The notes under the pieces: generated by a model
The model's database searches: none
What the model was told of the DNA's origin: nothing
The model's input: the letters and a program-made list of their open reading frames with translations, nothing else
Shown here: piece after piece, positions 2,426-49,646 of the stretch
How the letters are laid out: every line of letters starts with the position of its first letter
Position numbering within the stretch: the first letter of the stretch is position 1
Made by a program: the position numbers and the translations under genes
Source: a virus
Length of the DNA stretch: 64,000 nt
Virus record (IMG/VR): IMGVR_UViG_3300020185_004577
Location: 1 to 64,000 of that record
Direction: 5' to 3' (one strand)

Positions 2426-2627
2426 AGTTATGATTATATTAGAAGTAGATTACAGCGAATTCGAGAGACACCATTTTGATGATATATGGGATGCGATTCG
2501 AGATGTTTACGAAGAAGAACTTTACAAGCTAAAAAAAATAGAAAGAAATAAAGACAAAATGCATGTTAAGCTTAACATAGTAAGAAGGCGTGCATATCTA
2601 AAAGAAAAAAAGAATACTAAACGATAG
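2397..2627 (+). CDS. Hypothetical protein
   Basis: 76-aa ORF filling the gap after 2015-2425; start uncertain. Confidence 0.55.
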   Translation: MRMLEIHRSKVMIILEVDYSEFERHHFDDIWDAIRDVYEEELYKLKKIERNKDKMHVKLNIVRRRAYLKEKKNTKR

Positions 2628-2979
2628 TTATATAAGTGTTCCCATTAGTCATGGTTATTTTTTCCAAATTTATATATGTAAATTTTTCTGAAATACTTTC
2701 ATTTAAAAATTCATGTTTTTCAGTTAGTAATATTTTTTTTCCAAATGCAAAACAACAAAAAGATTCAATTGAAGTGTAGTCTATGTCTTCGCTCCCATCT
2801 CTACTTTTCTTTAGTTTATAATAAAGAAAAGGTAAGTCATATTCTTCAATCTCGGAAATCTCATTAATATTTATCTTAACAACACCCCAGTCATAAACAA
2901 TAACATAGTTATTTGACGCATTAGAACTACTTGCTTTAAACACACTACCATCAATATATTTTCTCTTTGTTAACTCCAT
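2617..2979 (-). CDS. Hypothetical protein
   Basis: 120-aa ORF abutting the upstream gene. Confidence 0.7.
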   Translation of the reverse strand: MELTKRKYIDGSVFKASSSNASNNYVIVYDWGVVKININEISEIEEYDLPFLYYKLKKSRDGSEDIDYTSIESFCCFAFGKKILLTEKHEFLNESISEKFTYINLEKITMTNGNTYITIV

Positions 2980-3738
2980 TTATATTTTGGTTAACATAAT
3001 CTCTTTTACAACCTCGTTTTCATAAGAAACCAAGTCATAAGTGACATCTGTTACCTCAACTCCACAAACTCTTCCTTCTGAATTTTTCAATATTAACTTA
3101 GTTCCTTTTGATAAGTGTTCCAAAACATTTTCTGGTGGTAGTTCTATATCAGACATTGTAAAATTTAAATTTTCTATATTAACTCTAGTGTGATTTCTAG
3201 TTTCTTTTACAATTTCATTAACTATAGTTTGACCAGTTATGCTTTTCATTGAAGCCTCTTGTTCCAAGAACTCTTGCTTTTTTTCTTGGAAATATCTATT
3301 TATATCTTTGGTTTTTGACTCAATTAGATGCTCTAAATTTTCAGAAACCTTTTTTATTTGAGACTTTATTTCCTGCTTAGTTTCTTCTCCTAAGTTTATT
3401 ATACTAGCCTTTTCCTGCTCTTTAGCCTTTCTATCCAACTCTTCTTCTTCCAACACCTTAAGAAGCTCTTGTTCATTTTGTTTTTTTATACTCTCTTTGG
3501 ATGCAACACGATTTCCTTGTGAATAATTTTCAATAATATAGTTAACGTAATCATCTCTACTAGCACTTTCACTGTAAGACGGGTGACCCTTAAAATTATA
3601 CCTTATAATTAAAGTCTTTATTGCATCATACTCTCTCCCATTGTAGTTCTTAACTATTCTATCTACCTCTTTTATCTTAGAAGGATTATAATGATTATAC
3701 AAATCAATAAGTGCTTCTTTAAAACTTTCAGAATTCAT
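2980..3738 (-). CDS. Hypothetical coiled-coil protein with N-terminal YNPxK..YxGRE helical motif
   Basis: 252-aa ORF; TATTTATA motif 12 nt upstream. Confidence 0.75.
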   Translation of the reverse strand: MNSESFKEALIDLYNHYNPSKIKEVDRIVKNYNGREYDAIKTLIIRYNFKGHPSYSESASRDDYVNYIIENYSQGNRVASKESIKKQNEQELLKVLEEEELDRKAKEQEKASIINLGEETKQEIKSQIKKVSENLEHLIESKTKDINRYFQEKKQEFLEQEASMKSITGQTIVNEIVKETRNHTRVNIENLNFTMSDIELPPENVLEHLSKGTKLILKNSEGRVCGVEVTDVTYDLVSYENEVVKEIMLTKI

Positions 3739-4363: not shown

Positions 4364-6343
4364 TTATTTGAATATTTTTTTAATAAAATTTGTAACAACT
4401 CCTTTGTTATCACTTTTCAAGCTTTCTTTAGAGTCTTTGGAGTTGTTAAGCTCTTTTTTTCTTATTTTAAACAACTCTTCTTCTGAAATTTGACCTGGCA
4501 TCATTCGTTGTCTGTCCTTACTTGGAGTCATGTCTGATGAATATGTATTTTTTACATTTATTTTATTTTTATCACAAAACATAATAGTTGACTCTATTAA
4601 CTCCTGTGTTGCTCTACTATTGTAATACCCCTTTAGTTGTTCAAGTTCTAATTTATCTCCCACCCTAACAAAGCCAGCAGTAGCTCTTTCTTTAGTAATT
4701 AAGTGAGTTACATTTATTGCTATGTATTTTTTTTCACAAATTCTATTTAAATAAGTATATATGCAGTGATGCATCTGTAAGCCTTCAAGATTTAACCTTT
4801 CTGCTGTTTCTACCACTTCAAATTTAACATCTCCAATTTGAATATTTAATTTTATAAAACTAGAAACAGACTTAGAATAAAACTCAGCTTTTTTAGCATC
4901 TTTCATAGCATTAAATCTAGCAGAATAGTCGTCATGAAGCTCTTTTAATTGATTGTAATTTTTACACTTAAATAAAACTTTAGGCTTTACTTCAAGTAAG
5001 TCAACAACTCTTATAGTGTCCATATAAATTACAACATAATCATTACCCTCATCTATTTTATTGTCTAAAATGTGTTTTATATTTTTAAACTCTAAGAGCA
5101 CATCATCTGTAACTCTTTGATTCTTTAAAATGCTAGACAAAACACTATAAACCCTATCTAACTCATAATTCTGCAATAAAAATTCTAACTGATTCTTTGA
5201 AGTTAATTTATAATGATATGCTTTATTTAATGTATCCATGTGAGACATCAACTTTATAGAATTATAAATTGTAGAACTTATCTTTAAATAACGTGACAAA
5301 TCTGAGCCATCTGCACGCTTATTGTAAGTCTCTTTCATTGACATTTCGATTATAGAGTGGGGGTTGGTTGATTTTCTATCTGCATACAATCTTGGGTTAT
5401 GTATGTAGTTACTTTCAGACCACATTTTAAAAAAGTTGTAACCTTTTGTGTGAATTATACAAGATGCACTTTCAAAAGACAAAACAGACAACAGCAGCTT
5501 ATATCCATTCATGCTATTAAAAAGGTAATCTCCTAAGTTTAATTTCTTTTTAACCATCTTCCCATCCCCAAAACCACTATCTAGATTTTGGTAATATTCT
5601 ATAGAACCAGACTCACTTTTTTCTATCTCAATTTTACTTTTAGATTTTATAAAGTCTATAAAATAAACAGAATCAAATTTATCCAAATCTTTAATGTGAA
5701 CCTTTATTAAATCTAAGGATTTTAAAATATTTTCAAAACCAGAATAATTAATAGAGTCAGAATAAGCAAAGAACTCTTCTAAAATCTTGACATTTGTTAT
5801 ATCCACATTTAAATCAACATCATCAATCACTTTATTTTCACCAGACTTTGATAAAGCATCAATTGATTTTAAATCTATGACATTAGGGGTGCTTAACTTT
5901 ATTCTAGATTGTTTTTTCAATAAATCAACTTCTAAAATGTCTACAGATTTATTAAACATTAAAGCGTCTTTGGAAGAACAATATTCAACTGCACCCTTTA
6001 ATCTTTTTATGGTAAAACTACTTTCTTCTTCTTTTACTTCTAAATCATAATCTACTGAGTATAACTCTCTTAAATTAGGCTCTAATAAGTATAGTTTTTT
6101 TAGATTGTCATACACCCTATTACACGAAGTGCAAGTTATCGATTTTAAACTTTCAGAATCTTCAGTGAGTTCATCATAATTTTTTATAACGTTTCTTACA
6201 AGTTTGCCCTTAAACCTCTGAACATTTCCACATTTACAATAAAGTATTTGACCTTTACTTGAAACGTTTGAGTCTTCAGAAATTTTAGAAACCACCATAC
6301 TGGCTGATAAATCAACTATAAAAGAAGGTTTTTTTGTAGACAT
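4364..6343 (-). CDS. PcfJ-like domain protein with N-terminal Cys cluster
   Basis: C-terminal LKELHD, LNLEGLQMHHCIYTY, QLKGYYN motifs typical of PcfJ domains; CKC and CTSC near the N-terminus. Confidence 0.75.
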   Translation of the reverse strand: MSTKKPSFIVDLSASMVVSKISEDSNVSSKGQILYCKCGNVQRFKGKLVRNVIKNYDELTEDSESLKSITCTSCNRVYDNLKKLYLLEPNLRELYSVDYDLEVKEEESSFTIKRLKGAVEYCSSKDALMFNKSVDILEVDLLKKQSRIKLSTPNVIDLKSIDALSKSGENKVIDDVDLNVDITNVKILEEFFAYSDSINYSGFENILKSLDLIKVHIKDLDKFDSVYFIDFIKSKSKIEIEKSESGSIEYYQNLDSGFGDGKMVKKKLNLGDYLFNSMNGYKLLLSVLSFESASCIIHTKGYNFFKMWSESNYIHNPRLYADRKSTNPHSIIEMSMKETYNKRADGSDLSRYLKISSTIYNSIKLMSHMDTLNKAYHYKLTSKNQLEFLLQNYELDRVYSVLSSILKNQRVTDDVLLEFKNIKHILDNKIDEGNDYVVIYMDTIRVVDLLEVKPKVLFKCKNYNQLKELHDDYSARFNAMKDAKKAEFYSKSVSSFIKLNIQIGDVKFEVVETAERLNLEGLQMHHCIYTYLNRICEKKYIAINVTHLITKERATAGFVRVGDKLELEQLKGYYNSRATQELIESTIMFCDKNKINVKNTYSSDMTPSKDRQRMMPGQISEEELFKIRKKELNNSKDSKESLKSDNKGVVTNFIKKIFK

Positions 6344-6444
6344 AATTTTTTAATATTTATTTTTTTAAAAATGATGATATTTTAGTTATATGTGAAATTA
6401 ATAAGTTTAATGTTATAAACAAAAAAATATATCTTTTTTTTTAA

Positions 6445-6452
6445 TATTTATA
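6445..6452 (+). promoter_or_regulatory. Putative phage late promoter TATTTAT(A/T), representative of about 18 sites
   Basis: Recurs on the sense strand 12-30 nt upstream of structural and putative head-protein genes (see findings). Confidence 0.7.
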
Positions 6453-6476
6453 GCAAAGTACTTTAACAAAAAAATT

Positions 6477-9302
6477 ATGCGTAATAATAAAAAACTTTAT
6501 AGCGAAGTTTCCAGAATGATTGAGCTAACAGAAAATAATCAAAATAAGTCAAAATTACTTAAAGAATCCTTTGGCAATAAGGTAATGTATAAAAAAATAT
6601 TAAAAGAATCTATTGATGATATAGATTTCACAGATATATTTGATATGTCTGATGAAAGCGAAAAAGATATGGACTCTAAAATAGACAGTAAATTTTCATC
6701 TCTTTCACCTAATGATGACATTTCTTTGTTGGGCAAATTAGCTCTAGCTACAGGTTCAATAAATAAGTTGCAAGCTGCAATGTTTGATTTAGAAAAGAAG
6801 GACACTCTAACCTTAAAAGACTTGAGCTCTGAAAGAGTTAAAAGGGATGATGATAAAGGAAGTGTCTTTGATAAAGGTAGAAAACCTTTATATCCTGGGC
6901 AATCTGTTGCAGATTTTAAAGATATGATGAAAAAGGGAAGGCTTATATTAAAAGTTGGAAATGAATCAGAAAATCTAGATGGTGAAAATGTAGACAAAGT
7001 ATTTAAATGGCTAGGAGGAACTAAAGGCGAAAAAAGCCTACACAACATAGGATTTGGAAGCAATGGTAAATTGAGCAAAAAAGGAAATGCAGAATTAAAC
7101 TTCTTGGCAAGAATGGTTTCCGACAAACCCAAAGATGAAGCAGAGCAAAAAATATTAGATACGTTCGGGAGTGCCGCTAAAAACAATGCACTGTCAATAT
7201 TGAAAGATTTTTATACGGTAGTAGCAAAAAACACTTTGCTTTCACTTTTAAATATGGAACCAACACCAGAAAATTTAGATACAATATCAGATGGTGTTAA
7301 TGAAGCGATAACAAATTTAGCTGGAGTTTCTGGTGGTGATTTAGAAAAAAAGCCTACTAGCTGGGATTCTTCTAGAAATATTGGACCTTGGATTTTGCAA
7401 GTTGCAAAAAATTATGCCAAAAACGTGCTTAAAAAAGATACAGAATATGTTCCAAACTTAAATTCAGCAAGACAATTCTTTCAAGATATGATGGATAGAG
7501 AGGGTGTTATATCTATAATTTCAAGAAAAGAGCCTTCTCATGAAAACTATGCTGATGAAGTGGAAAAAGTTGGAAGTAAATATTTGTATAAGTATTCAAA
7601 AATAGAAGATGCTATTGATGATTTATTAAATTCATCTAAAGTAAAAAATCATCATTTAAAATCTTATAATTTAGACATTTCTAAATCTAAAGATTTATTT
7701 TCTTCAGAAAGAAAAGCTCCAGTATCAATGTCTCCAGAAATGGAAAAGGAAACAGGCGAAATGATTGCTGATGAAGATGCAATTTTAGGAATTGATAAAG
7801 ATTCTGAATTAAAAATAAGAAACATACTATCTAAAGTGGTTGACTTTATGACTTTAGACTCTAAGAAATATGGAATAAAACAAGCTACTCACGACCCTTT
7901 GTATTTATCAGGAAAAGACAAGGAAGAAATAAAATCTGGTAAAGATGAAGGTTTAATTAGAAGAAGAAAAGAGTTGGCTAAAGAAAATGCTGTAAACTTC
8001 ATGTACAACTTTTTGCTATCTGCAATTGGAGACACAAAATACGGTACAGATATAGGAATATCAGGAAAGGTTAATCCAGAAGTAATGCAAAACTGGATAG
8101 ATGGTCAAAGAAAGTCTATATTAACTAAATTGATAGACATTGAAAAGAAAAACAATCCTAATATAGATTCTGAAAAAATAAAAGAAAGAGCTGAAGAGTT
8201 AGGACTATTAATTAAAGGTGGTAAAATGAGCCAATCTTTTAAAAGTGGATTAAAAGATTATTTTTCTGCAAACAAAAAGGACTTATCTAAAGTAATGGAA
8301 TTAATTTCTTCGACATCTCCAGAGGGATATGAAGTAGAAACGGATATAGAAACAATTTTTGAGCAGAAAGTTAGAGCTAAAATTCAAAATATAATAAAAG
8401 AATCATTTGTCGTAAAAGAAGAGGAATACGAAGACAACAACACGGAAGAAGAAGAGTTAGATAATTTAATAAATGTATTTGGAGACAGATTTGGAAAATC
8501 AACATCCTATGAAAGAGGTGGCAAAAATGGATTAGACAATGAAATAAAAAGTATAATAGATGGAAACAAATCCAAGTGGCATTTTGAAAATAGTGAAAAA
8601 GGTCAACATAACTATATAACTTCAGTTTTAGCTTCTATGTACAACTCATTGAGCAGCTCTCAACAGAGAAATGTTTTAAAACATATTTTCCTTTCTTTCT
8701 TCCCAAGAGGTGAAGAAAGTAGAATAGTTACACAACTAACTAACAAGCAAGTTCCTGGCTCTATGATGAGCAACAAGTCAGATATGTGGGATGTAATCAT
8801 ATCCTCAGAAGATGATGGAGTTTTGCTTTTGCAAAAAGCTTTAGAAACATATGAACCTAAAGGCTCTTTGTTTAAATACTTATTAAGAAGAATTCTTAAT
8901 GAAGCAAAAAATAGAACCAGAAAATTCGATGCATCAGTACACAAAGGCGAAAGAACTTACCACTCTAGTTATACAGACTCTATTGATGCCCCTATAGGAA
9001 GTGATGAGGATGGAAGTAAAGCTTTCGAATTAGAGGCTGAGCCAGCTATAAATGACAGGCTGGAAAAGGCAAAACACACACTATCAAGAGTGTTAAGCAC
9101 ATTAGGAGGTGAGCTTTCAAAAAGTCAAAGAAATTTATTGATGGCAATTAAAGATATGGGCGATGATGCATTTAGTCCCGATGGAGAGCTTGTATATGGA
9201 CTTATAGCAACTAGAACGGGGCTTAGCGATTCTAATGTTGGTAGTACAATGTCTGCCATAAAGAAAATGGCAAAAGAATTAAAGGGAAAAGGAATGGTAT
9301 AG
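6477..9302 (+). CDS. Large protein with two sigma70/ECF-like modules; candidate virion-packaged sigma polyprotein
   Basis: Region-2-like WDSSRNIGPWILQVAKNYAKNVLKK and KALETYEPKGSLFKYLLRRILNEAKNRTRK; region-3.2-like SIDAPIGSDED; region-4-like LSKSQRNLL...YGLIATRTGLSDSNVGSTMSAIKK. Confidence 0.65.
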   Translation: MRNNKKLYSEVSRMIELTENNQNKSKLLKESFGNKVMYKKILKESIDDIDFTDIFDMSDESEKDMDSKIDSKFSSLSPNDDISLLGKLALATGSINKLQAAMFDLEKKDTLTLKDLSSERVKRDDDKGSVFDKGRKPLYPGQSVADFKDMMKKGRLILKVGNESENLDGENVDKVFKWLGGTKGEKSLHNIGFGSNGKLSKKGNAELNFLARMVSDKPKDEAEQKILDTFGSAAKNNALSILKDFYTVVAKNTLLSLLNMEPTPENLDTISDGVNEAITNLAGVSGGDLEKKPTSWDSSRNIGPWILQVAKNYAKNVLKKDTEYVPNLNSARQFFQDMMDREGVISIISRKEPSHENYADEVEKVGSKYLYKYSKIEDAIDDLLNSSKVKNHHLKSYNLDISKSKDLFSSERKAPVSMSPEMEKETGEMIADEDAILGIDKDSELKIRNILSKVVDFMTLDSKKYGIKQATHDPLYLSGKDKEEIKSGKDEGLIRRRKELAKENAVNFMYNFLLSAIGDTKYGTDIGISGKVNPEVMQNWIDGQRKSILTKLIDIEKKNNPNIDSEKIKERAEELGLLIKGGKMSQSFKSGLKDYFSANKKDLSKVMELISSTSPEGYEVETDIETIFEQKVRAKIQNIIKESFVVKEEEYEDNNTEEEELDNLINVFGDRFGKSTSYERGGKNGLDNEIKSIIDGNKSKWHFENSEKGQHNYITSVLASMYNSLSSSQQRNVLKHIFLSFFPRGEESRIVTQLTNKQVPGSMMSNKSDMWDVIISSEDDGVLLLQKALETYEPKGSLFKYLLRRILNEAKNRTRKFDASVHKGERTYHSSYTDSIDAPIGSDEDGSKAFELEAEPAINDRLEKAKHTLSRVLSTLGGELSKSQRNLLMAIKDMGDDAFSPDGELVYGLIATRTGLSDSNVGSTMSAIKKMAKELKGKGMV

Positions 9303-9312
9303 AGACTTTGGA

Positions 9313-10182
9313 TTATTCAAAACCTATATCATTGGATGGGTTGTTTGAATATGTTGATGAAATAATATTGTCTTTCATTTCCTTTAACTCTTCTAACTTT
9401 TCAGAATAGTTATAACCATAAAGTTCTACCGATTCTATCAAATTTTTAATGTGTCCAATAGATAGTCCATTTGTATCTTTTGACATTTTTCCAATTTTAC
9501 TTTTAGTTATTTTTATGTCTAACTTTTCACAAAAAGACCTAATGTATTGACCTCTCTCTACATCGTCTGGATATTCTATAAAAAACTTTTCTTCAAACAT
9601 TCCTGGCTTGTCTGTTAGAAATTCTGCTATTTTTGATTCAAAATTAGTAGTTGCAATAAAATATACTCCATCTTTGTTTTCATTAGATTTAAGTATGTTT
9701 TTTGCAGCAGATATCCCATACTTCTCTAAAGATACTCCAAAATCTTCCATGATAATCAAAATGTCAGTATTGTCGTTGCTTTCTTTTACAAAAGAAATGA
9801 AGCTATTTAAATCAGTTGGGTCTTCAACATAAATAACTACACCATCATAAGACTCCGCAACCCTTCTACATAAATACTTTTTACCGCACCCAGGCTGTCC
9901 ATGTATCAATATAGCTCTATTAAACTCGACCCCAGATGATTTGTACTTATTTTTTAAATTTATAAAACTATTAAAATCATCACTAATATCTTTATAATAA
10001 GAGTTTAATATTTCCAAAGGTTTATCATTAGAAAATGATGCCTTAAAAAGGTGTGGACCTTGCTCTAGCGAATACTTAAGATGATATATACCGTTTGGTA
10101 TTTTGCTATATACTGACTTCGCTGGGTGGAATTCTAAACCATCTTCTGAAGTCCATACTCTTTTAATTTTGTTTTCTGACAT
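9313..10182 (-). CDS. AAA+ ATPase-like protein, degenerate
   Basis: ILIHGQPGCGKK Walker A, LIIMED Walker B, FIATTN sensor, C-terminal IGF. Confidence 0.8.
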   Translation of the reverse strand: MSENKIKRVWTSEDGLEFHPAKSVYSKIPNGIYHLKYSLEQGPHLFKASFSNDKPLEILNSYYKDISDDFNSFINLKNKYKSSGVEFNRAILIHGQPGCGKKYLCRRVAESYDGVVIYVEDPTDLNSFISFVKESNDNTDILIIMEDFGVSLEKYGISAAKNILKSNENKDGVYFIATTNFESKIAEFLTDKPGMFEEKFFIEYPDDVERGQYIRSFCEKLDIKITKSKIGKMSKDTNGLSIGHIKNLIESVELYGYNYSEKLEELKEMKDNIISSTYSNNPSNDIGFE

Positions 10183-10275: not shown

Positions 10276-11094
10276 ATGAAAAAAGGTACATCAAATAACA
10301 TATTCATTAAAAACTTTATAAAAGAAAGTTATAAGTCTGTTGATGAAAAAGTTAATGAAATAAAAGATAAAATAAAAAAATTAGAATCAGAAGAAGAACA
10401 AGCTTTAAAAAACTGGGGTGGTGAGTCTGAGAGCGAAGAAGAATTTAGTGCTGAAGAGTTTTTTGGGGATGCTGGAGATGCTGCTGAAGAAGACATAAAA
10501 TCAGACCCAGAAATGGGTGGCGAAGATGAGTTTGCTCCATTTGGAAGCTTAGAAGACCCTAGAATGTTAAAGGGTTTAACTGAAAATCAATTTAGATTAG
10601 TTATTAGAAATATGATTAAAGAGTCAGGCTACCCATCATTAGATGGGGGTGAAAATGCTGATGGTGGCGAGGCTGAAAATGACAACAATGACGATGCTAC
10701 AGTCGCTGAGTCTGACGACAATTTAGAAGAAGAGAGGATAGCAAATACTGAATCTAAACATGAGGTTAACCAGCTTAGAAACTTTATTGGTAGCCATATA
10801 TATGGAGAAGATTTAGGTGACTTAGGAAAAATGTATGTTGCCTATTCATATGGAGAACAGTTTCCAACATATCTACACTACAAAGGAAAGTGGTACCACA
10901 ATACCGACTATTATATGTTAGATGATGGAAAGATTAATAAACCTACTGAAAAACACAAAAAAGACATGAAGCCCTCAAAAGAAACTCATGGTATGTCCAC
11001 TATAGGCTTGCAAAGTTTGATTAGAGCTTTTAAGAAAAAAAATAAGTTAGGAGATAACAATCATACAGATGTTGAACCTGGTGAAAAGAACTAA
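10276..11094 (+). CDS. Acidic putative internal head protein with conserved-looking C-terminal YVAYSYG domain
   Basis: 272 aa; FIKNFIKES and LTENQFRLVIRNMIKES motifs; late motif upstream. Confidence 0.55.
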   Translation: MKKGTSNNIFIKNFIKESYKSVDEKVNEIKDKIKKLESEEEQALKNWGGESESEEEFSAEEFFGDAGDAAEEDIKSDPEMGGEDEFAPFGSLEDPRMLKGLTENQFRLVIRNMIKESGYPSLDGGENADGGEAENDNNDDATVAESDDNLEEERIANTESKHEVNQLRNFIGSHIYGEDLGDLGKMYVAYSYGEQFPTYLHYKGKWYHNTDYYMLDDGKINKPTEKHKKDMKPSKETHGMSTIGLQSLIRAFKKKNKLGDNNHTDVEPGEKN

Positions 11095-15483: not shown

Positions 15484-17568
15484 TTATTTTTTATTTGTTT
15501 TTTTAGAAACTCTTTTTGCAACTTTTTTAACAACAACATTATCTTCTTTAGCGCTATAGTCAACAGATAATTTATCTCCTAATTTTATTTCACCTCTCAA
15601 CACGGCTTGTGAAGCTGGGTTTTGTACGTACTTTGTAACTGCCCTTATTACAGGTCTTGCTCCAAATTCTTCACTGTAACTTTCCTTTAATAAGAAATCT
15701 TTCATTTTCTTTGTAATAGAAAGTTCATACTCTCCGTTTTCAAACATTCTTTTTGCCAAAGAACTAACATGTATATCTACTATTTTAGAAATATCATCTT
15801 CTTTTAAAGTGTTAAAGACAACTTTTTCATCAATTCTATTAATAAACTCTGGTCTGAACACTTTTTTGAGCGACTTTGCAATAACATCATTAACATTCAT
15901 ATCGTCAGTTGTGCCAGAATCAAAACCTACAGGAGTGACATCCAACTCTTTAACTCCAATATTAGAAGTCATTATTATAATGGTATTTTTAAAGTTAATC
16001 TCTCTACCTAGACTATCAGTCAACATCCCTTCATCTAATATTTGCAAAAGAACATTACTAACATCTCTATGCGCTTTTTCTATTTCGTCAAAAAGAATAA
16101 CACTATAAGGATTGTTTTTAACAGCATCTGCTAATTGTCCACCCTCATCGTGACCTACATACCCAGGAGGTGAACCTATCATTCTAGACACTGAATGAGG
16201 CTCCATGTACTCTGACATATCAAGTCTTATGAGAGACTCTTCATTTCCAAACATATATTCAGCTAAAGCTTTAGTTAGTTCAGTTTTACCAACTCCAGTC
16301 CTTCCTAAAAACAAAAATGAAGCAATTGGTCTATTTGGATTATGAAAACCTGCTGCAGACCTTTGTACAGCTTCTGAAACCTTTTGAACAGCTTCATCTT
16401 GACCAATAACTCTAGACTTTATTTCTTCAGGCATTTTAATTAACCTCAAACCTTCATCATCAGTTAGTTTCTTAACAGGAATACCAGTCATTCTAGCAAC
16501 AACTCTAGCTATTTCATCAAGTAAAACATCAACTTTGTTTTCTTTACTTTCTTTATCCCAATTAAATTTATCTAACTCTAATTGTTTTTCCATTTTTCTA
16601 ATAGCATCTCTTGAATCTGCTGCCATTTCAAATTCTTGCTTTTTTATATGACTAGCCTTTAATTCCACTTGAGACTCTATATCTTTTTCTAATTGAAGAA
16701 TTTCTTCAGGAACATTTATATTATCTATGTGAACTCTAGAACCAACTTCATCCATTATATCTATTGCCTTATCTGGGAATTGTCTCTCTGTAATATATCT
16801 TTCAGCATATGTAATACAAGCATCTATAGCCTCCTCATTAAAAGATACATTATGAAAATTTTCATAGTGCTGTTTGATATTCATTAATATTTCTTTAGTC
16901 TCTTCAGTTGTGGGTGGTACAACTTTAACTTTTTGAAATCTTCTTTCTAAAGCTCCATCTTTTTCTATAGTTTTTTTATACTCATCTATAGTAGTAGCAC
17001 CAATACATTGAATGGCACCTCTAGAAAGAGCTGGTTTAATCATGTTTGCAACATCTAAAGAGCCCTGAGCATTACCAGTTCCTATTATAGTGTGTATTTC
17101 GTCAATAAAAACAATTACATCCTGATTTTCTTCAAGCTCTTCTATAATAGCCTTCATACGTTCCTCAAACTGGCCTCTGTATTTTGTGCCAGCAACAATA
17201 GATGACATCTCTAGTTCAACTATTCTTTTGTCGTGTAAAATTCTACTTACTTCTTTATTTACAATTTTCATTGCTATACCTTCAGCGATTGCAGTTTTAC
17301 CAACCCCTGGGTCTCCTATTAAAACAGGATTATTCTTTTTTCTTCTACTCAATATTTGTATTAGCCTATCAATTTCTTCTTCCCTTCCTATTACAGGGTC
17401 TAGCTGATTGTTCATTGCTAATAACGTTATATCTTTACCAAAAGAATCTAACGCTGGTGTCTTTGATTCTTTTCCATCTTTTCTCTTAATTCTTTTACCA
17501 TCATTTGGCTCTTTTCTACCACCGAATGATTCAAACTCACTTTCATCTGAAGACATATTGATATTCAT
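15484..17568 (-). CDS. clpC: ClpC-type AAA+ unfoldase lacking the N-terminal Clp-repeat domain
   Basis: Two Walker A motifs (GDPGVGKT, GRTGVGKT), UVR-type middle domain QEFEMAADSRD, VGF ClpP-docking loop. Confidence 0.93.
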   Translation of the reverse strand: MNINMSSDESEFESFGGRKEPNDGKRIKRKDGKESKTPALDSFGKDITLLAMNNQLDPVIGREEEIDRLIQILSRRKKNNPVLIGDPGVGKTAIAEGIAMKIVNKEVSRILHDKRIVELEMSSIVAGTKYRGQFEERMKAIIEELEENQDVIVFIDEIHTIIGTGNAQGSLDVANMIKPALSRGAIQCIGATTIDEYKKTIEKDGALERRFQKVKVVPPTTEETKEILMNIKQHYENFHNVSFNEEAIDACITYAERYITERQFPDKAIDIMDEVGSRVHIDNINVPEEILQLEKDIESQVELKASHIKKQEFEMAADSRDAIRKMEKQLELDKFNWDKESKENKVDVLLDEIARVVARMTGIPVKKLTDDEGLRLIKMPEEIKSRVIGQDEAVQKVSEAVQRSAAGFHNPNRPIASFLFLGRTGVGKTELTKALAEYMFGNEESLIRLDMSEYMEPHSVSRMIGSPPGYVGHDEGGQLADAVKNNPYSVILFDEIEKAHRDVSNVLLQILDEGMLTDSLGREINFKNTIIIMTSNIGVKELDVTPVGFDSGTTDDMNVNDVIAKSLKKVFRPEFINRIDEKVVFNTLKEDDISKIVDIHVSSLAKRMFENGEYELSITKKMKDFLLKESYSEEFGARPVIRAVTKYVQNPASQAVLRGEIKLGDKLSVDYSAKEDNVVVKKVAKRVSKKTNKK

Positions 17569-26503: not shown

Positions 26504-27370
26504 TTAACTCAAATGTTGCTTTAATATATTACTTCTACTCCTATGTCTCAAAACCTTTATGGCAGAATCTTTTATTTGACGAACTCTCTCTCTTGTTAAT
26601 CCAAAATATTCACCCACTTCTTCGAGTGTCATCTTTGGATATCCCATTATTCCGTAATACATACAAACAACCTCTCTCTGTCTAGGCTGTATTGTTTTAA
26701 GTGTTGAAGATAAATCTTGATGTAAAGAGTCTGAGGCCACACTTATATCCACATCATTCATCTCTCCTTCTGAAATTTTATCATACAAACTATAACCTTC
26801 ATCATCAGTTGACAGAGGAGCGTCTAAAGATGCTTGAGGCTGCGAGGAACGTAATAATCTAGATATTTTCACTACATCCTCTTGCATTATTTCAGCTATC
26901 TCTTCCTCTGTAGGCTCTCTTTGATTTCTTTGTTCAAAATCTCTAGACTCTTGCTTTAACTTATAATAAGTACTGATTTGATTTGTAGGAAGCCTAACCA
27001 TTCTAGAATTATTTGCCAAAGCTTCTAGTATAGATTGTCTAATCCACCATACAGCATATGATATAAATTTAAAACCCCTTGTTTGGTCAAATCTTTCGGC
27101 AGCCTTTATTAAGCCATAATTACCTTCATTTACTAAATCTTCAAAATTTATACCCTTACCCTGATATTGTTTTGCAACACTTATAACAAATCTTAAATTG
27201 CCAGTAATTAACTTTTCTCTAGACCTTATATTACCTGCTTGTGACTCGATGGCTAACTTATGCTCTTCTTCTTCTGTTAGTTGTTTGATTTTATTTATTT
27301 CATTTAAATATGACTTTATGGAATCAGAATCTCTATTCGTTATTTTATTAGTTATTTTCAGTTGCCTCAT
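26504..27370 (-). CDS. RNA polymerase sigma70 factor, Bacteroidota RpoD/SigA-like (paralog 2)
   Basis: MRQLKI start, NLRFVISVAKQY, DLVNEGN, FISYAVWWIRQ, SLDAP, LTRERVRQI. Confidence 0.95.
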   Translation of the reverse strand: MRQLKITNKITNRDSDSIKSYLNEINKIKQLTEEEEHKLAIESQAGNIRSREKLITGNLRFVISVAKQYQGKGINFEDLVNEGNYGLIKAAERFDQTRGFKFISYAVWWIRQSILEALANNSRMVRLPTNQISTYYKLKQESRDFEQRNQREPTEEEIAEIMQEDVVKISRLLRSSQPQASLDAPLSTDDEGYSLYDKISEGEMNDVDISVASDSLHQDLSSTLKTIQPRQREVVCMYYGIMGYPKMTLEEVGEYFGLTRERVRQIKDSAIKVLRHRSRSNILKQHLS

Positions 27371-27502: not shown

Positions 27503-28366
27503 TTATAGATATTTTATGAGCAAATCTTTTGTTGAAGTGTTTTCTAACAACTTTTTCTCAGCCTTTCTTGCAATTTGCCTAATCCTCTCATTGCTATACC
27601 CTAGTTTTCTAGCAATTTCCTCTTTAGAATGCGCTTGACAATCTATGCCATAAGTGTACCTAATGACTAAAGTTTCATTGTTCGTAAGTATTTCAAATGC
27701 TCTGTACATATCTTGTTTTAAAGAATCGTCTAACAATGAAGAGTCTGGCTTGCCCAAGCTATCATCTTCTATTAAATTCACTAAAGTTGAAGAGTTTTCA
27801 TCAGAACCTACTTTTGCATCTAAAGATGAATGAAAAGAACTAGCTTGCTGTAGAAGCTTACCAGATTCAGCGTCTATATCCATATATTCACAAACTTCGA
27901 ATTCTGTTGGCTCTCTTTCTAAAACTTGCTGCAAGTGCTGTACGGCTCTTATATATTTCCCAGCTTCTAAATTTTTATTAGAAGGAACTTTTATCATTCT
28001 CTTCTTTTCAGATATGGCTTGTATTATAGTTTGTCTAATCCACCAAACCGCAAAAGATATAAATTTAAAACCTCTAGTTCCATCGAATCTTTCGGCAGCC
28101 TTTATGAGTCCCAAATTACCTTCATTTATCAAATCGGCTAATGGCAATCCTGTATTTTGGTATTTTTTAGCAACACTAATTACGAATTTTAAATTTGATT
28201 GAACCAATTCTTTTAAAGCCTCTTCGTCACCTTCTTGAATCAATTTAGAAAGCTCAAATTCTCTTTCCGGGGTTATGGAATCAAATTTATTTACATCCGT
28301 AAAGTATTGTTCTATTGATTTTTCAGTTCTGTTTGTAAGGCTTTGTTGAATTTTTAATTGTCTCAT
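27503..28366 (-). CDS. RNA polymerase sigma70 factor, Bacteroidota RpoD/SigA-like (paralog 1)
   Basis: MRQLKI start, NLKFVISVAKKY, FISFAVWWIRQ, YSNERIRQI. Confidence 0.95.
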   Translation of the reverse strand: MRQLKIQQSLTNRTEKSIEQYFTDVNKFDSITPEREFELSKLIQEGDEEALKELVQSNLKFVISVAKKYQNTGLPLADLINEGNLGLIKAAERFDGTRGFKFISFAVWWIRQTIIQAISEKKRMIKVPSNKNLEAGKYIRAVQHLQQVLEREPTEFEVCEYMDIDAESGKLLQQASSFHSSLDAKVGSDENSSTLVNLIEDDSLGKPDSSLLDDSLKQDMYRAFEILTNNETLVIRYTYGIDCQAHSKEEIARKLGYSNERIRQIARKAEKKLLENTSTKDLLIKYL

Positions 28367-44624: not shown

Positions 44625-47600
44625 TTAACCTTTTTCCTTAAGTATAGTCACTCCTTGTCCTTCAAAGTTTTTGTTAATATATTCAACAAATGCTGGAGCT
44701 CTTCCTTGAGCTCTTCTCATTCCTCCTAGTTTGTCATTAGGACTCAACTTCTTTTTTACTGCAGCAACTGTTTTGCCTGGCCCTGTGTTCAAATGATAAT
44801 AAAAGAATACTGCGTTTTTTAAATCTGGGAATGTTACACCATTGTCGGGACATCCATAACCCTCCTGCCTTGTGGTATACCCAGTTTTTTTTGTTCCAAA
44901 TCTTGATGTCCTTCTTCTGCCATTAAAAAAACCAACTAAAGCAGCTGTCGCTACATCTTCTTCTAACAATCTTTCAGGATACCTTATAAGGTCAACTCCT
45001 GAGTTTTTGGCAGCCTTTTCATATCCAGATTTAAACGTGATTTGATTGTATCCTCTTCCTCTATATTTCCAACCATCACCTTTACGTGTGTTCCCATAAC
45101 CATTTGTTCTTATACCTACTGGCTTTTGTGTATAAACAATATTTGCAATTTTTTCTTGATATTTGTCTGAATCAGCCTTTTTTGTTTTTGGATTAACAAA
45201 ACCACCTTTTACAGGGTCGTTCTTTTTAAAATAACTCCAAACTTCTGGCAGTCTACTGGCGCTGTAAAGAAACCCTTCTGACTTTAAATCGAAACTACTT
45301 TCTTTGCTACATATAGATAATACCGATGCGATAGCAAAATTACTCGTAATACCTTCTTCTACGCATTTTTTTATAATTTTATCTATTCTTCTCTTTTTGG
45401 TGCTGCTTCTTAAGTATGATGCAACAGTTTTAGAGCCTTTATCAGTACCAGTGACTGCGTAGTCTCCACCAGTTCCGCCGCCACCACCAGCACCTCCACC
45501 ATCACTAGCGGGGTCTTCTGAATTAAGCTTCTCTTGTAACTCCTTGTCTTCTGCAGCTGAACTTGTTGACGCTTTTTCTAAAGGAGCTTCTTTAGCTATT
45601 CCTGCAGCATCCTCAAAGTCTTGAAGAGTTATTGGTAGAACTCCACCATAACTATTTCCTCCATATCTCATTTTTATTCCCGACAAATCTGTAGTCATAT
45701 CGTTGGGAGTTATTTTGTGATTCACTTTAATAATTTGATATAGACCAGTAAAAATAGTGTGATTTTCTAAAAAGAAAAACTGAAGAGGTGATATTTGGGA
45801 ATTTCCAATAGTTTCAACCCCAGCCTTGTAACTTCTTCCCTCAAAAACAGAAAGTAAACTACAGTCAGTGGTTACGGTTTTATTTTTGTTATCGTTATCT
45901 ACAATTGCTTGTAAATTAACTATACTTTCAGCTGTAACCTTATTTTCATCAGTGCTAACTTGTACATTTTTAATAATTTTATTTGTAGGGTCTCCAAATG
46001 CTATTGGGAAAGCTTCAACTTCAAAGGTTCTTAAATCTTTTACAGCAGACTGCTTTTTTTCCGTATCATTACCCACTAAAGTTCTACTTTCTGGTGTTGG
46101 TTGGAACATAACTTGGAAAAAGTTACCTATTCTTGGACCCATCATTTCATGGGGTCTAAAAATGTCAGTCACTTTATCGTATCTTGCATTTCCACATATA
46201 GGGAAAAACATAAAGTTATTTTTGGTACACAATTGCTGAAACATATTTAATGTGGTAGTATTTGCTTTTGCCGCATAAAGTGGAGCTAAACTAATTAATG
46301 CATCTTTCACTTTAACATCACTAGCCCCAATAGCCTGAAGAGGATAGTCATACCTAAAACCTCCACCAAGAACACTTCCATTATTCCTTTCTCTAGAAGA
46401 GGGGGTTTTAGCGGGGGGAACTTCGCTTCCATAAACTTTCTGCATTTCTATTGCTACATTCGGAGTTAGCGTTGCTGGTTCTCCTACTTGATTTATTCTA
46501 CTTCCATCACTTTTTCCTCCCAATATTTGCCACTGATGAAAAAGTGTGTGCATTTGTTTATATATCAAATCTTCATGCTCTCCAGCTTTGCCTAATATTT
46601 GTCCAAAAACTTTATCTACTTCATCTTGTATTTTTTGTATTTTAGGCAACAATCCCAAAGCTAACTTTCTCAAAAAGACTAAAGCCATCTGAGAATAATC
46701 ACCCTCATCGTTGAATGCACTAATTGGATTGTTTTTATTTCGAGTAGAGCCAACTGGTGCTCTGTTTTCTTTTGCATTCAAACCTCCCGCAATTGGAGTA
46801 AATGATTGACTTGTTTCATCCCTTGATGGATATTGAGCATATGGAGCTATAATTACTGGTGTCTGTTCGACATTAATAAAGTTGCCTTGTGCTCCACCGT
46901 CTGAACTTGATTCACCATGTGTTGGTCCAAAATATTGTCGCCAACTAAAAGTATCAGGCCTAAAATATTCGGGTACTGAGCTTCTAGTGTCTACACTACT
47001 TGCCTTTTTGTAATTATATAATGAAAAGCCAACACCGTTACCTCCATACTTTGACGAATCACCAAAACCAAAAAGAATGTCTCCTCCACCAGTGTATCCT
47101 GCCAATCTTTTGTTAAAAAAAAGAAGAAATTGATTTGTTACTTTGGCTCCATCTGGCTCTTGTTCGTCTTCTGGCACTCGTGTTGAATCTAAAGTTATTA
47201 CTTTGGCCACCTCATCTTCTACAGCTTCATTATCCTTTTGTTCATCTTCTTCTTCATCGCCTGTTGCTGTTGGCACAAGCCCCGGATTTTCTAATGCGCC
47301 ACCAACTCTTGAAACATCTCCAGAATCACTAAAAACAACATATTCTGTATAATTACCTTCCTCTCGAGAGCCGAAACCTGGGGTTCCTCCATATCCAGTA
47401 TGAGCAAACACAACGCCACCCATTCCTACCCACGAACCTAAGCTGGTCTTAAAATCCATACCATTACCCCAAGTAGGAGATACAGTTGTACCTTTTTTAC
47501 CAAGATTTTTTTGTTTTGTAGTTTGTCCAAAAAATGCTTTTTCACTGCCAATTAAATTTGCAAAAACTTCCTCAAATGTATACATTATCACACCTGCATT

Positions 47601-49646
47601 TTTCAATTCTGTACCAAGAGCGTTGGTTCTATTCATTACATTATTTTTATTATCATAGAATGAACCTAATTTACTTTTCATAGAAGAATATGTAATCATT
47701 CTTACATCTGGAAAACCGTCTCTTAAAAAATTTACAATTCTTTTACCTTGAGCCGTTGTGGTCAAAGCAGCTAATCCTGGGTTAATTACAATGCCTCGCC
47801 TCATAACTCCACCAGAGCCAAAATTCCACATGCGAACAGAATCAAGGTCAGCGTCTGGCCTTTGTATCCAAGCTCTTATTGCGATGCAAAATTCTTTTAA
47901 CTTCTGCAAGCCTTCAGTGTCTAATTGAGCTAGAACAACGTCTGTAATGTTAGCCAAATCTGAACTCGCCAAACTTCTTATTTTATCATAATCTTGATTT
48001 TTCTTATAATCTCCAGTATAAAACCTAGTATTACCATTTGGCTCTAAATTACCAGGTAATGCAGGATTAAAGCTTTGAGTTAAAAAACCAGCTATACCCG
48101 CTCTTTTAACCATTATAGACGCTATCATAGACCAATCATTCTGTCCCAAATAAGGATTGTCAGCGCCTATTTCCATATTATTTATAATATGTTTTATAGT
48201 TTTGTCACCACCCTCAGCAGCTTCTTTTTGCAAAGCCCTATTTTCTGCAATACCAAAACTTATAGCTGTAATAAAATCATTAACAAACTTTTTTTCAAAA
48301 TTTTCAGTACCCAAGCCTTTTGCTGGTATTTGGTTTCCCAAATCTTTTTTTCCATCTTTTGACTTATCAAATATCATAGGATAATATCTTCCTATGGTTT
48401 TATTTTCTTCTGCCTTATTTCTCTCTTCAACGTTATTAAGGTAACCTTGCTCTCCTGCATCTATTATGTACCCCATTATATAGGCAGTGTCTCTAGCGAT
48501 TCTGCTAAACACTTCAGAAATAGTCAACTTTTGCAACTCGCTTCTATTTTCTTTATAAAGATTAGCCTTTATTGCATTCTCTATTATTTCTAAATTCGAA
48601 TCTATTATAGGATTAAGCTTTTTAGCTCCTGTTTTTAATTTTTCTATATCAGTATTACTTACATTACCTCCAAACTTTGGCAGCTTGATATTAGAAGCTC
48701 CTGGAGTTGAGGAAATTTTAACTTTCCAATTTTCTATATTACGTAAACTAGGACTTAAATTTTTCAATGCAGGGATTAATATTTCATCATCTTCCGTGTA
48801 AGCATTATCTTTAGGTTTAGTAATTTTTATAGGTACAAAATCAGGTATTTCACCTCTACCAGGTATTTTACTTGATATTATATTTTCTCCTCCATCTTCA
48901 TTAAATGTTAATTCTCCACTTACAACGCCTTGTATTGGGTCTCTTTTGGCTAGTTGTAATTTGGCAACTATTTCATCGTACTCTTTAGTTAAATTTGCAG
49001 TCTCAACCTCTATCGTCTTACCAATGTACATCAAATCAATAATACTTTCTGTTGCTTCTATATAAGTTTTACTATCTTTTCCTATGTTAGTGTCTAACCT
49101 ATCGGCTCTCAATTTTTTAGCAGCATACAAATATAAAAACGGTATATCTGCAAACATACCCCATTGATTAGGCACAAAAGTTGCCTTTATAGTATAACTT
49201 CCATCATCAGAATTGTATTGAGTAGATGTGGTTTTCATATTTAGCAACCATGTAACAGGAGCTCCTAAATATCCTTTAAATGTAAATACAAACTTAGGTG
49301 GAGGCCACTGAAAAAGAGCAGCATAATTAACTCCATCAGCATCGACATCATACGTTTCTCCAAAAACTGTTTTTCCAAACAAGTCTTTAAACTCTATTTC
49401 CACAATAGGCTGAAGAGATGTATTTGTTTCAATTTTTACGTTAGTAATTCCAAAACCTATCTGCCTTCTAAAAAAACCAGTTTTAAAAGTGGGTAATCCT
49501 GTAAAGTCTTCAACTTGACTTATAAACCCAGTGTCTGGGTCTGTTACTACAGCACCTTCATTGCTTATAGTTGTCAGTCTAACATCTAAATATAAATCTC
49601 TCTCATCAAACTGTAAATCAGCTATATTTTCTGGGATTACTGGCAT
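44625..49646 (-). CDS. Baseplate hub-like protein with C-terminal GH19-type lysozyme
   Basis: 1673 aa; N-terminal FGITNV..F.D..G and FTFKGYLG hub-like motifs; C-terminal KESSF...GDGWKYRGRGYNQITFKSGY. Confidence 0.8.
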   Translation of the reverse strand: MPVIPENIADLQFDERDLYLDVRLTTISNEGAVVTDPDTGFISQVEDFTGLPTFKTGFFRRQIGFGITNVKIETNTSLQPIVEIEFKDLFGKTVFGETYDVDADGVNYAALFQWPPPKFVFTFKGYLGAPVTWLLNMKTTSTQYNSDDGSYTIKATFVPNQWGMFADIPFLYLYAAKKLRADRLDTNIGKDSKTYIEATESIIDLMYIGKTIEVETANLTKEYDEIVAKLQLAKRDPIQGVVSGELTFNEDGGENIISSKIPGRGEIPDFVPIKITKPKDNAYTEDDEILIPALKNLSPSLRNIENWKVKISSTPGASNIKLPKFGGNVSNTDIEKLKTGAKKLNPIIDSNLEIIENAIKANLYKENRSELQKLTISEVFSRIARDTAYIMGYIIDAGEQGYLNNVEERNKAEENKTIGRYYPMIFDKSKDGKKDLGNQIPAKGLGTENFEKKFVNDFITAISFGIAENRALQKEAAEGGDKTIKHIINNMEIGADNPYLGQNDWSMIASIMVKRAGIAGFLTQSFNPALPGNLEPNGNTRFYTGDYKKNQDYDKIRSLASSDLANITDVVLAQLDTEGLQKLKEFCIAIRAWIQRPDADLDSVRMWNFGSGGVMRRGIVINPGLAALTTTAQGKRIVNFLRDGFPDVRMITYSSMKSKLGSFYDNKNNVMNRTNALGTELKNAGVIMYTFEEVFANLIGSEKAFFGQTTKQKNLGKKGTTVSPTWGNGMDFKTSLGSWVGMGGVVFAHTGYGGTPGFGSREEGNYTEYVVFSDSGDVSRVGGALENPGLVPTATGDEEEDEQKDNEAVEDEVAKVITLDSTRVPEDEQEPDGAKVTNQFLLFFNKRLAGYTGGGDILFGFGDSSKYGGNGVGFSLYNYKKASSVDTRSSVPEYFRPDTFSWRQYFGPTHGESSSDGGAQGNFINVEQTPVIIAPYAQYPSRDETSQSFTPIAGGLNAKENRAPVGSTRNKNNPISAFNDEGDYSQMALVFLRKLALGLLPKIQKIQDEVDKVFGQILGKAGEHEDLIYKQMHTLFHQWQILGGKSDGSRINQVGEPATLTPNVAIEMQKVYGSEVPPAKTPSSRERNNGSVLGGGFRYDYPLQAIGASDVKVKDALISLAPLYAAKANTTTLNMFQQLCTKNNFMFFPICGNARYDKVTDIFRPHEMMGPRIGNFFQVMFQPTPESRTLVGNDTEKKQSAVKDLRTFEVEAFPIAFGDPTNKIIKNVQVSTDENKVTAESIVNLQAIVDNDNKNKTVTTDCSLLSVFEGRSYKAGVETIGNSQISPLQFFFLENHTIFTGLYQIIKVNHKITPNDMTTDLSGIKMRYGGNSYGGVLPITLQDFEDAAGIAKEAPLEKASTSSAAEDKELQEKLNSEDPASDGGGAGGGGGTGGDYAVTGTDKGSKTVASYLRSSTKKRRIDKIIKKCVEEGITSNFAIASVLSICSKESSFDLKSEGFLYSASRLPEVWSYFKKNDPVKGGFVNPKTKKADSDKYQEKIANIVYTQKPVGIRTNGYGNTRKGDGWKYRGRGYNQITFKSGYEKAAKNSGVDLIRYPERLLEEDVATAALVGFFNGRRRTSRFGTKKTGYTTRQEGYGCPDNGVTFPDLKNAVFFYYHLNTGPGKTVAAVKKKLSPNDKLGGMRRAQGRAPAFVEYINKNFEGQGVTILKEKG

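Follow-up and report, generated by a model that had tools for sequence, protein, structure and literature searches.

To our knowledge, phage sigma factors are small stand-alone proteins. In T4, the late sigma factor gp55 consists of sigma domain 2 (sigma2) only and reads a -10-only promoter, TATAAATA; it is a stand-alone protein of ~185 amino acids (aa), made before the late genes, and works with gp33 and the gp45 clamp. Other phage proteins are delivered with the virion. T4 Alt and IPI-III are packaged in the head, trimmed by gp21 and injected, Alt being an ADP-ribosyltransferase which modifies host RNA polymerase, while the virion RNA polymerases (N4 vRNAP, phiKZ-type vRNAP) are complete polymerases, with which infection is independent of the host enzyme. 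We know of no injected sigma factor, and a literature search also turned up none. The present analysis concerns an open reading frame (ORF) of 941 aa, located at positions 6477-9302 (+ strand) of a 64-kb stretch of viral DNA, called here the window, which makes up positions 1 to 64,000 of a record of 83,144 bp (G000, IMGVR_UViG_3300020185_004577; 26% complete according to CheckV). Its product is a two-module protein, in which what reads as a complete minimal sigma factor is joined to a large module carrying a second sigma2 domain. In a preliminary description, made from the sequence alone, the protein was proposed to be a pair of tandem sigma factors delivered by the virion; the ORF is as first described, and all the peptides quoted from it were found close to where they had been placed.

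Two sigma-like modules in one protein

The gene, its promoter and the segments of its product are listed below, in window coordinates.

6477..9302, + strand: two-module sigma-like protein (P0001), 941 aa, with full-length homologs at 31-98% identity
6445..6452, + strand: TATTTATA box, phage-specific '-10-only' promoter class B, 25 nt upstream of the ATG
6477..6608, + strand: N-terminal helical hairpin, aa 1-44 (model helices 4-18 and 22-40), with an E-(V/I)-x-R-M-x-x-L motif and ending in ILKE44
6597..6611, + strand: ILKES, aa 41-45, candidate protease site after E44, [LIVM]-[KT]-E being conserved
6612..6701, + strand: tract of acidic sequence, disordered, aa 46-75 (pLDDT <50 for aa 39-60)
7035..7442, + strand: module-1 sigma domain-2-like fold, aa 187-322, from matches to 1or7_A, 2o7g_B and gp55 and from hhalign
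7443..7721, + strand: beta-rich insertion, aa 323-415, confidently modelled, without fold match
7788..8396, + strand: helical region of unmatched fold, aa 438-640, holding a proposed 'degenerate HTH' at ~565-598
8346..8405, + strand: junction helix ending in IIKES, aa 624-643, module boundary and candidate site after E642; I636 and E642 are invariant in the 14 full-length homologs
8406..8465, + strand: acidic disordered linker, aa 644-663 (pLDDT <50 for aa 641-655)
8595..8921, + strand: module-2 sigma domain 2 fold, aa 707-815, with a region 2.2-2.4 signature; match to 2o7g_B
8928..9047, + strand: region-3.2-like disordered linker including SIDAPIGSDEDGS, aa 818-857, from BLASTP and low pLDDT
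9075..9296, + strand: sigma domain-4 helix-turn-helix (HTH), aa 867-940, matching 3vep_D (SigD4, Z 5.6) and also 8jzt_A, 3mzy_A and 4g6d_A

Structures were modelled with AlphaFold, whose predicted local distance difference test (pLDDT) score is 75.7 for the whole protein, ~90 for aa 200-410 and 81.5 for a separate model of aa 655-941, which corresponds to most of the C-terminal module (C-module or module 2, aa ~643-941). When the latter model was searched with Foldseek, the 50 best rows were all sigma factors. Alignments colinear over the whole length of the module were obtained with sigmaE, SigL and AlgU (E 0.015-0.2, probability at most 0.95), and two-domain colinear alignments also with SigB and sigma28. 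In an unfiltered structural search, aa 707-815 superpose on SigC (2o7g_B) with Z 7.5 and a root-mean-square deviation (rmsd) of 2.1 A, 86 of 89 residues being aligned, and SigW, SigK, sigmaE and SigI6 match this domain likewise. The domain also aligns to the segment 'KAAERFDQTRGFKF...' of a sigma factor encoded by the phage itself, which contains the region 2.2-2.3 signature. In the linker which follows, SIDAPIGSDEDGS aligns with region 3.2 of the canonical sigma factors of the phage, colinear with the start of region 4 (BLASTP, E 0.002). Further downstream, aa 867-940 match SigD4, sigmaF-4, sigmaH-4 and sigmaA-4 with Z 5.5-5.9 (5.6-6.8 for the sigma4 matches of the module overall); these scores are moderate, and a HTH alone would be unspecific.

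At the sequence level, Pfam Sigma70_r2 gives a sub-threshold match to the 941-aa protein at aa 781-816 (E 0.035), which recurs in 9 of 14 homologs, with a best E of 0.0012, and also in the stand-alone C proteins described in the next section. Taken with the Z scores, this recurrent signal, the order of the domains and the signature of region 2.2-2.3 argue for a clear reading of module 2 as a divergent minimal sigma factor, predicted to consist of a short extension, sigma2, a 3.2-like linker and sigma4. The module is regarded as sigma-70-derived and divergent, and is not filed as a Pfam member. The assignment of sigma70 region 2, region 3.2 and a region 4 HTH to it in the preliminary description is borne out, the structural comparison with sigma domains having returned matches for both sigma2 and sigma4.

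The layout resembles that of the extracytoplasmic function (ECF, group 4) sigma factors, such as E. coli sigmaE and M. tuberculosis SigC, SigK and SigL, in which sigma2, linker and sigma4 follow in the same order, and whose folds and region 2.2-2.4 and 4.2 signatures match the C-module. Unlike these, the phage protein scores below the Pfam cut-offs and is fused, or in some relatives adjacent, to a 640-aa module with a second sigma2; it is phage-encoded, carries an N-terminal extension and acidic linkers, and has no evident anti-sigma partner.

The second sigma2 lies within the N-terminal module (N-module or module 1, aa 1-642), for which 49 of the 50 best rows were sigma2 domains, the remaining one being a designed scaffold. 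The best superposition, on E. coli sigmaE (1or7_A), has Z 9.9 and rmsd 2.0 A over 92 residues, with 17% identity, and in a search independent of Foldseek the module matched SigC (2o7g_B) with Z 8.8 (88 of 89 residues) and T4 gp55 (7d7d_F) with Z 7.7 (18% identity). By hhalign, this sigma2 and that of the C-module are homologs (P 6e-6, probability 85%, 68 columns). The earlier assignment of sigma region 2 to module 1 thus holds for aa ~187-322. No fold match was found for aa 76-186. For aa 438-640, neither a comparison with the C-module sigma4 by hhalign nor the ESM Atlas gave a sigma3 or sigma4 signal, and the region was unmatched in the fold searches with the whole model, whose lists filled with other domains, the region not having been folded alone. 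The degenerate HTH which had been suggested within it (aa ~565-598) likewise found no sigma4 counterpart by hhalign and is not supported. Both modules are sigma-70-derived, as the notion of tandem sigma factors implied, but this name is too strong, since sigma2 is all that was found of a sigma factor in module 1: the protein is composed of one sigma2-only module and one complete minimal sigma.

Module 1 is in this respect similar to gp55, which also has a sigma2 without a detectable sigma4. Unlike gp55, it is no small stand-alone sigma2-only protein, its sigma2 being surrounded by the rest of a 640-aa module within a protein of 941 aa, and the gene itself is preceded by a TATTTATA box.

Homologs, module boundary and domain exchange

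A word-seeded search detected 17 relatives of the protein, and an exhaustive HMMER search 35, all from metagenomes. Fourteen full-length homologs align with it from end to end, down to 31% identity; two are encoded in related IMG/VR records, G001 (232.5 kb, 88% complete) and G002 (125 kb), at 55% and 74% identity, respectively. No match was found by tblastn in 50,697 records of cultured phages for the full protein or for the N-only and C-only forms, a profile search detected no homolog in Flavobacterium phage immuto, and the 941-aa protein has no match in PHROGs and chance matches only in a profile search of PDB sequences. DNA nearly identical to positions 6300-9400 of the window is present in marine, estuary and sediment metagenomes from several independent studies. 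Short pieces of the gene also occur, at >=99% identity (that is, at least 99%), in metatranscriptome contigs from three studies; such RNA-library contigs are no proof of transcription and define no 5' end.

The exhaustive search also revealed proteins of 626-700 aa matching only aa ~4-470, and proteins of 347-374 aa matching only aa ~635-875. These N-only and C-only proteins pair up on contigs of equal length. In one contig from the Joint Genome Institute (JGI), L005, an N gene (518-2569) and a C gene (2571-3695) are one base apart and differ in frame; downstream of them, on the minus strand, lies a gene of 292 aa with the size and position of the AAA-ATPase gene next to the 941-aa gene in the window. 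The split N proteins end with a helix of the (K/R)-I-x-x-I-x-E type, and the split C proteins start with one; in the fused form, one junction helix (aa 624-643) corresponds to both. E642 thus marks a genuine module boundary: in a sister clade the two halves are neighbouring genes, split at exactly this point, and for the same reason the modules are regarded as separable units.

In the tree of C-modules, the four true stand-alone C proteins group in a single clade (98/95), which a long branch sets apart from the fused clade. This points to one event, either a fusion or a fission. Two further proteins considered as split forms, P0026 and P0033, were discarded, because their place in the tree is inside fused clades; they are probably fragments. 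A third architecture was observed in a JGI protein of 903 aa (P0040), which branches in the tree as the sister of the stand-alone C proteins, and whose N-terminal part has a weak Sigma70_r4_2 match at aa 314-338.

Sequence conservation is distributed unevenly along the C-module. The segment aa 846-941 (window 9012-9299), which contains sigma4, is 98% identical to that of the homolog P0004 and 93% to that of P0010, although these proteins are 24-73% identical to the 941-aa protein elsewhere; over the same segment the closest overall relative, P0003, is just 41% identical. Such an identity of 93-98% in the sigma4 of otherwise divergent homologs shows that the sigma4 module recombines between lineages as a cassette, a behavior which would fit a module determining DNA specificity.

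Promoters, companion sigma factors and probable action on RNA polymerase

The phage is an uncultured marine T4-like jumbo phage. In G001, a major capsid protein (MCP) of gp23 type, an acidic scaffold and a prohead protease of T4 gp21 type are encoded; the nearest MCP among cultured phages is that of Flavobacterium phage immuto, with 34% identity. The gene content of G000 includes SSB, a PcfJ-like gene, an AAA ATPase, DnaJ, a Clp/Lon-type ATPase, ribonucleotide reductase (RNR), DnaB, a PolIII-type polymerase, portal and terminase. The 941-aa gene is located among replication and chaperone genes, distant from the head module. Other features of the window are the following.

4364-6343, - strand: PcfJ-like protein, flanking the 941-aa gene divergently, the order being kept in G001
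9313-10182, - strand: small AAA ATPase, flanking the 941-aa gene divergently, the order being kept in G001
10276-11094, + strand: acidic protein of 272 aa, on the same minority strand as the 941-aa gene, which carries (F/M)IKES twice and has a TATTTAT box of its own; its positional counterpart in G001 is 62% identical, no family found
26504-27370 and 27503-28366, - strand: tandem canonical sigma-70 genes, ~288 aa each, with regions 1.2, 2, 3 and 4 above the Pfam cut-offs
44625-49646, - strand: protein of 1673 aa with an endolysin-like domain near its C-terminus (aa 1421-1576), which may be a virion-associated cell-wall hydrolase

Two types of promoter box were distinguished in G000 and G001. 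Boxes of the type TAnnTTTG, which we take to be the -7 element of Bacteroidota sigmaA, are concentrated in the replication region and precede many of its genes, so that a Bacteroidota host is likely. The box upstream of the 941-aa gene belongs to the other type, with core (A/T)TATTTAT(A/T), which was detected 11-41 nt upstream of ~23 of 75 ORFs in G000 and of 72 of 243 in G001. These TATTTAT boxes are often located directly after terminator hairpins and precede most structural genes. Among the genes with such a box are those for portal and terminase, the protease operon and two very large ORFs, as well as DnaJ, DnaB and a Clp-type (ClpC-like) ATPase. No -35-like element, possibly co-varying with the sigma4 allele, was found upstream of them in G000 or G001. 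The AT-rich 8-mer class represented by TATTTATA is in this respect similar to the T4 late promoters, which likewise lack a -35 element. The TATTTAT boxes form a phage-specific promoter class distinct from the host-type one. The motif seen in front of the gene and labelled as late in the preliminary description is therefore confirmed as a box, while the label is unsupported, since the same box precedes DnaJ and DnaB.

Both canonical sigma genes are kept in G001 and G002. As they are present, the lineage presumably relies on host RNA polymerase together with its own sigma factors. A further protein of 294 aa, encoded in the structural half of G001 (L017:12718-13602 = G001:165718-166602, + strand), has a weak Sigma70_r2 match (E 0.0009) and could be a reader of TATTTATA boxes.

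Considering these data together, the 941-aa protein is a two-module sigma-70-derived protein, probably with a sigma-like action on host RNA polymerase. Several observations weigh against this interpretation. In module 1, neither sigma3 nor sigma4 was found, and ~450 residues are without a known fold. No Pfam sigma model is matched at its curated cut-off (14.3 versus 24 bits for Sigma70_r2, with no r4 match), and the Z scores from the fold searches with module 2 are middling values for helical domains. Two canonical sigmas are already available to the phage, and G001 adds the 294-aa sigma-like protein, so that the promoter classes observed could be served without the 941-aa protein.

If the action is sigma-like, binding to RNA polymerase and targeting of promoters would most likely proceed as follows. 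Both sigma2 domains would dock on the beta-prime clamp helices of the host core enzyme and the sigma4 of the C-module on the beta flap and DNA, and the polymerase would be redirected to phage promoters. The N-module would provide a second sigma2, similar to those of ECF sigmas and T4 gp55, placed among lineage-specific domains of unmatched fold. The protein may be supplied only by synthesis in the infected cell, or may also be packed in the head.

The number and type of the domains are also compatible with a mimic or decoy, in which the sigma2 domains would bind host core RNA polymerase, a host sigma or an anti-sigma partner without directing initiation, so as to shut off or tune host transcription. 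There are two sigma2 domains versus one sigma4, module 1 is devoid of a detectable DNA-binding sigma4, the specificity loop of its sigma2 differs in length among homologs, and canonical phage sigmas are already available for the promoters. The C-module retains, however, the full sigma2-linker-sigma4 layout with a canonical-looking 4.2 HTH, and the exchange of a sigma4 cassette points more to a DNA-specificity element than to a passive competitor, so that a decoy is considered improbable.

Possible packaging in the head and wider meaning

The sigma-like reading may be combined with a delivery by the virion. As proposed in the preliminary description, and elaborated here, the protein would be made late and loaded into the prohead core through a scaffold-like N-terminus; an S77 protease would then cut it after E44 and E642, and two sigma-like products (~600 and ~300 aa) would be injected together with the DNA, so as to act on host RNA polymerase when the next infection begins. 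That the protein is packed in the head at all is conceivable but doubtful; the complete sequence of packaging, cleavage and injection is a reasonable but tentative proposal, and rather unlikely.

T4 gp21 cuts after Glu, as in Alt at ITE-6 and LTE-619, and T4 internal proteins carry a capsid-targeting sequence (PMC5694885, PMC3012670). A Peptidase_S77 is encoded within the gp23-type head module of G001 (G001:143872-144291, E 2e-34, 115.8 bits); it was not detected in G000 or G002, both of which are incomplete records. Residues 1-44 are a candidate propeptide or targeting segment. The E-(V/I)-x-R-M-x-x-L motif is kept in all N-containing homologs, and [LIVM]-[KT]-E44 followed by acidic residues in 26 of 26 of them, down to 22% identity. 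[IL]-x-E642 is kept in all fused homologs, in the sister clade the gene is divided exactly at E642, and the C proteins encoded alone begin with M-K-x-K-L-K-L-I-I-K-E, which resembles a targeting sequence.

Similar motifs are found in proteins of the head. In G001, E-h-x-R-M-x-x-L occurs only at the N-terminus of this protein and at the extreme C-terminus of the scaffold, versus 0.24 occurrences expected, and a variant is present at the C-terminus of an acidic protein of the head module; the immuto scaffold ends with ...VSRWQKLAGIIK, like that of G001. Such motifs are short, and a compositional bias is possible. The scaffold-type acidic proteins of G001 (L009:8222-9658 and 16915-17484, both - strand) and of immuto (L022:7707-8948, + strand) end in (V)(S/A)R(M/W)xKLAG(I/L)..K; the immuto gene carries the annotation 'DNA polymerase phi-like', for which its acidic tracts are probably the reason. 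The helical hairpin itself (aa 2-44) gave a match to a capsid-bound scaffold fragment (9b40_G, Z 5.7), which was rejected as unspecific, many unrelated hairpins matching equally well.

Packaging is also in line with the promoter class of the gene, which is common to portal, terminase and the protease operon, and with the association of N-terminal h-h-x-E helices with TATTTAT genes (7/23 versus 3/52 in G000, p 0.007; p 0.05 in G001). Since the box also precedes DnaJ, DnaB and ClpC-like genes, it is nevertheless not a late-only mark.

In the preliminary description, each module was said to be preceded by a KES motif plus an acidic tract, and the motif was said to occur on other acidic proteins as well. 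Three such motifs exist in the protein, LLKES (aa 27-31), ILKES (41-45) and IIKES (639-643), and the second and third are followed by acidic residues, but E30, in the first, is not conserved among homologs. [LIVMF][LIVM]KE[ST] occurs nine times in the 83-kb record versus 1.5 expected, five of the nine occurrences being in the 941-aa gene and its acidic neighbour on the + strand (10276-11094), a protein with two such motifs which is itself conserved in G001. The wider pattern [LIVMF][LIVM]KE[STED] is, however, not enriched overall in G001 (13 versus 11 expected).

Further points stand against packaging and cleavage. No homolog was found in cultured phages, and N-terminal helices rich in Lys, Ile and Glu are common in AT-rich genomes. 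In the split N proteins the motif is at the extreme C-terminus, where cutting would free just 3-4 residues. Finally, an injected sigma would have no obvious first task and is not obviously needed at the start of infection, because the probable early genes carry host-type TAnnTTTG boxes.

The motifs which recall head proteins could instead belong to a head-assembly or structural protein, in which sigma-like helical bundles would be reused without any role in transcription. Its terminal motifs are common to the scaffold and to acidic head-module proteins, its acidic tracts are long, and its long helices have a low-probability likeness to polyvalent and tape-measure proteins in BFVD; these 'large polyvalent' and tape-measure matches, with probabilities of 0.06-0.28, were set aside as unspecific. 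This explanation is very improbable, as region 2.2-2.4 and 4.2 signatures are specifically kept in the two modules across >70% divergence and the gene has replication and chaperone genes as its neighbours, the head module being far away.

A packaged sigma-like protein would be closest in its delivery to T4 Alt and the internal proteins, with which it shares a T4-type head system, an S77 protease in a relative, short terminal h-x-E motifs, a gene scattered away from the head module and, for Alt, host RNA polymerase as the presumed target. It differs in that Alt is an ADP-ribosyltransferase, whereas the 941-aa protein is sigma-like, its packaging and cleavage being putative. With the virion RNA polymerases, the injected-sigma model has in common the concept of transcription machinery delivered with the DNA; unlike N4 and phiKZ, the lineage has genes for sigma factors, and none for a phage RNA polymerase was noticed in those parts that were examined.

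The conserved family described here joins an apparently complete minimal sigma to a large module with a second sigma2, which is a new architecture for phage proteins of the sigma family, and probably a new architecture with which marine jumbo phages, abundant but uncultured, take over the RNA polymerase of the host. If packaging were true, the protein would be the first injected sigma factor, and host RNA polymerase would be re-programmed before the expression of any phage gene. This would represent a third virion route of transcription control, beside whole virion RNA polymerases and modifying enzymes such as T4 Alt, and E-x-x-R-M-x-x-L together with h-x-E would constitute a sequence tag predicting the packaged proteome of uncultured T4-like Bacteroidota phages.

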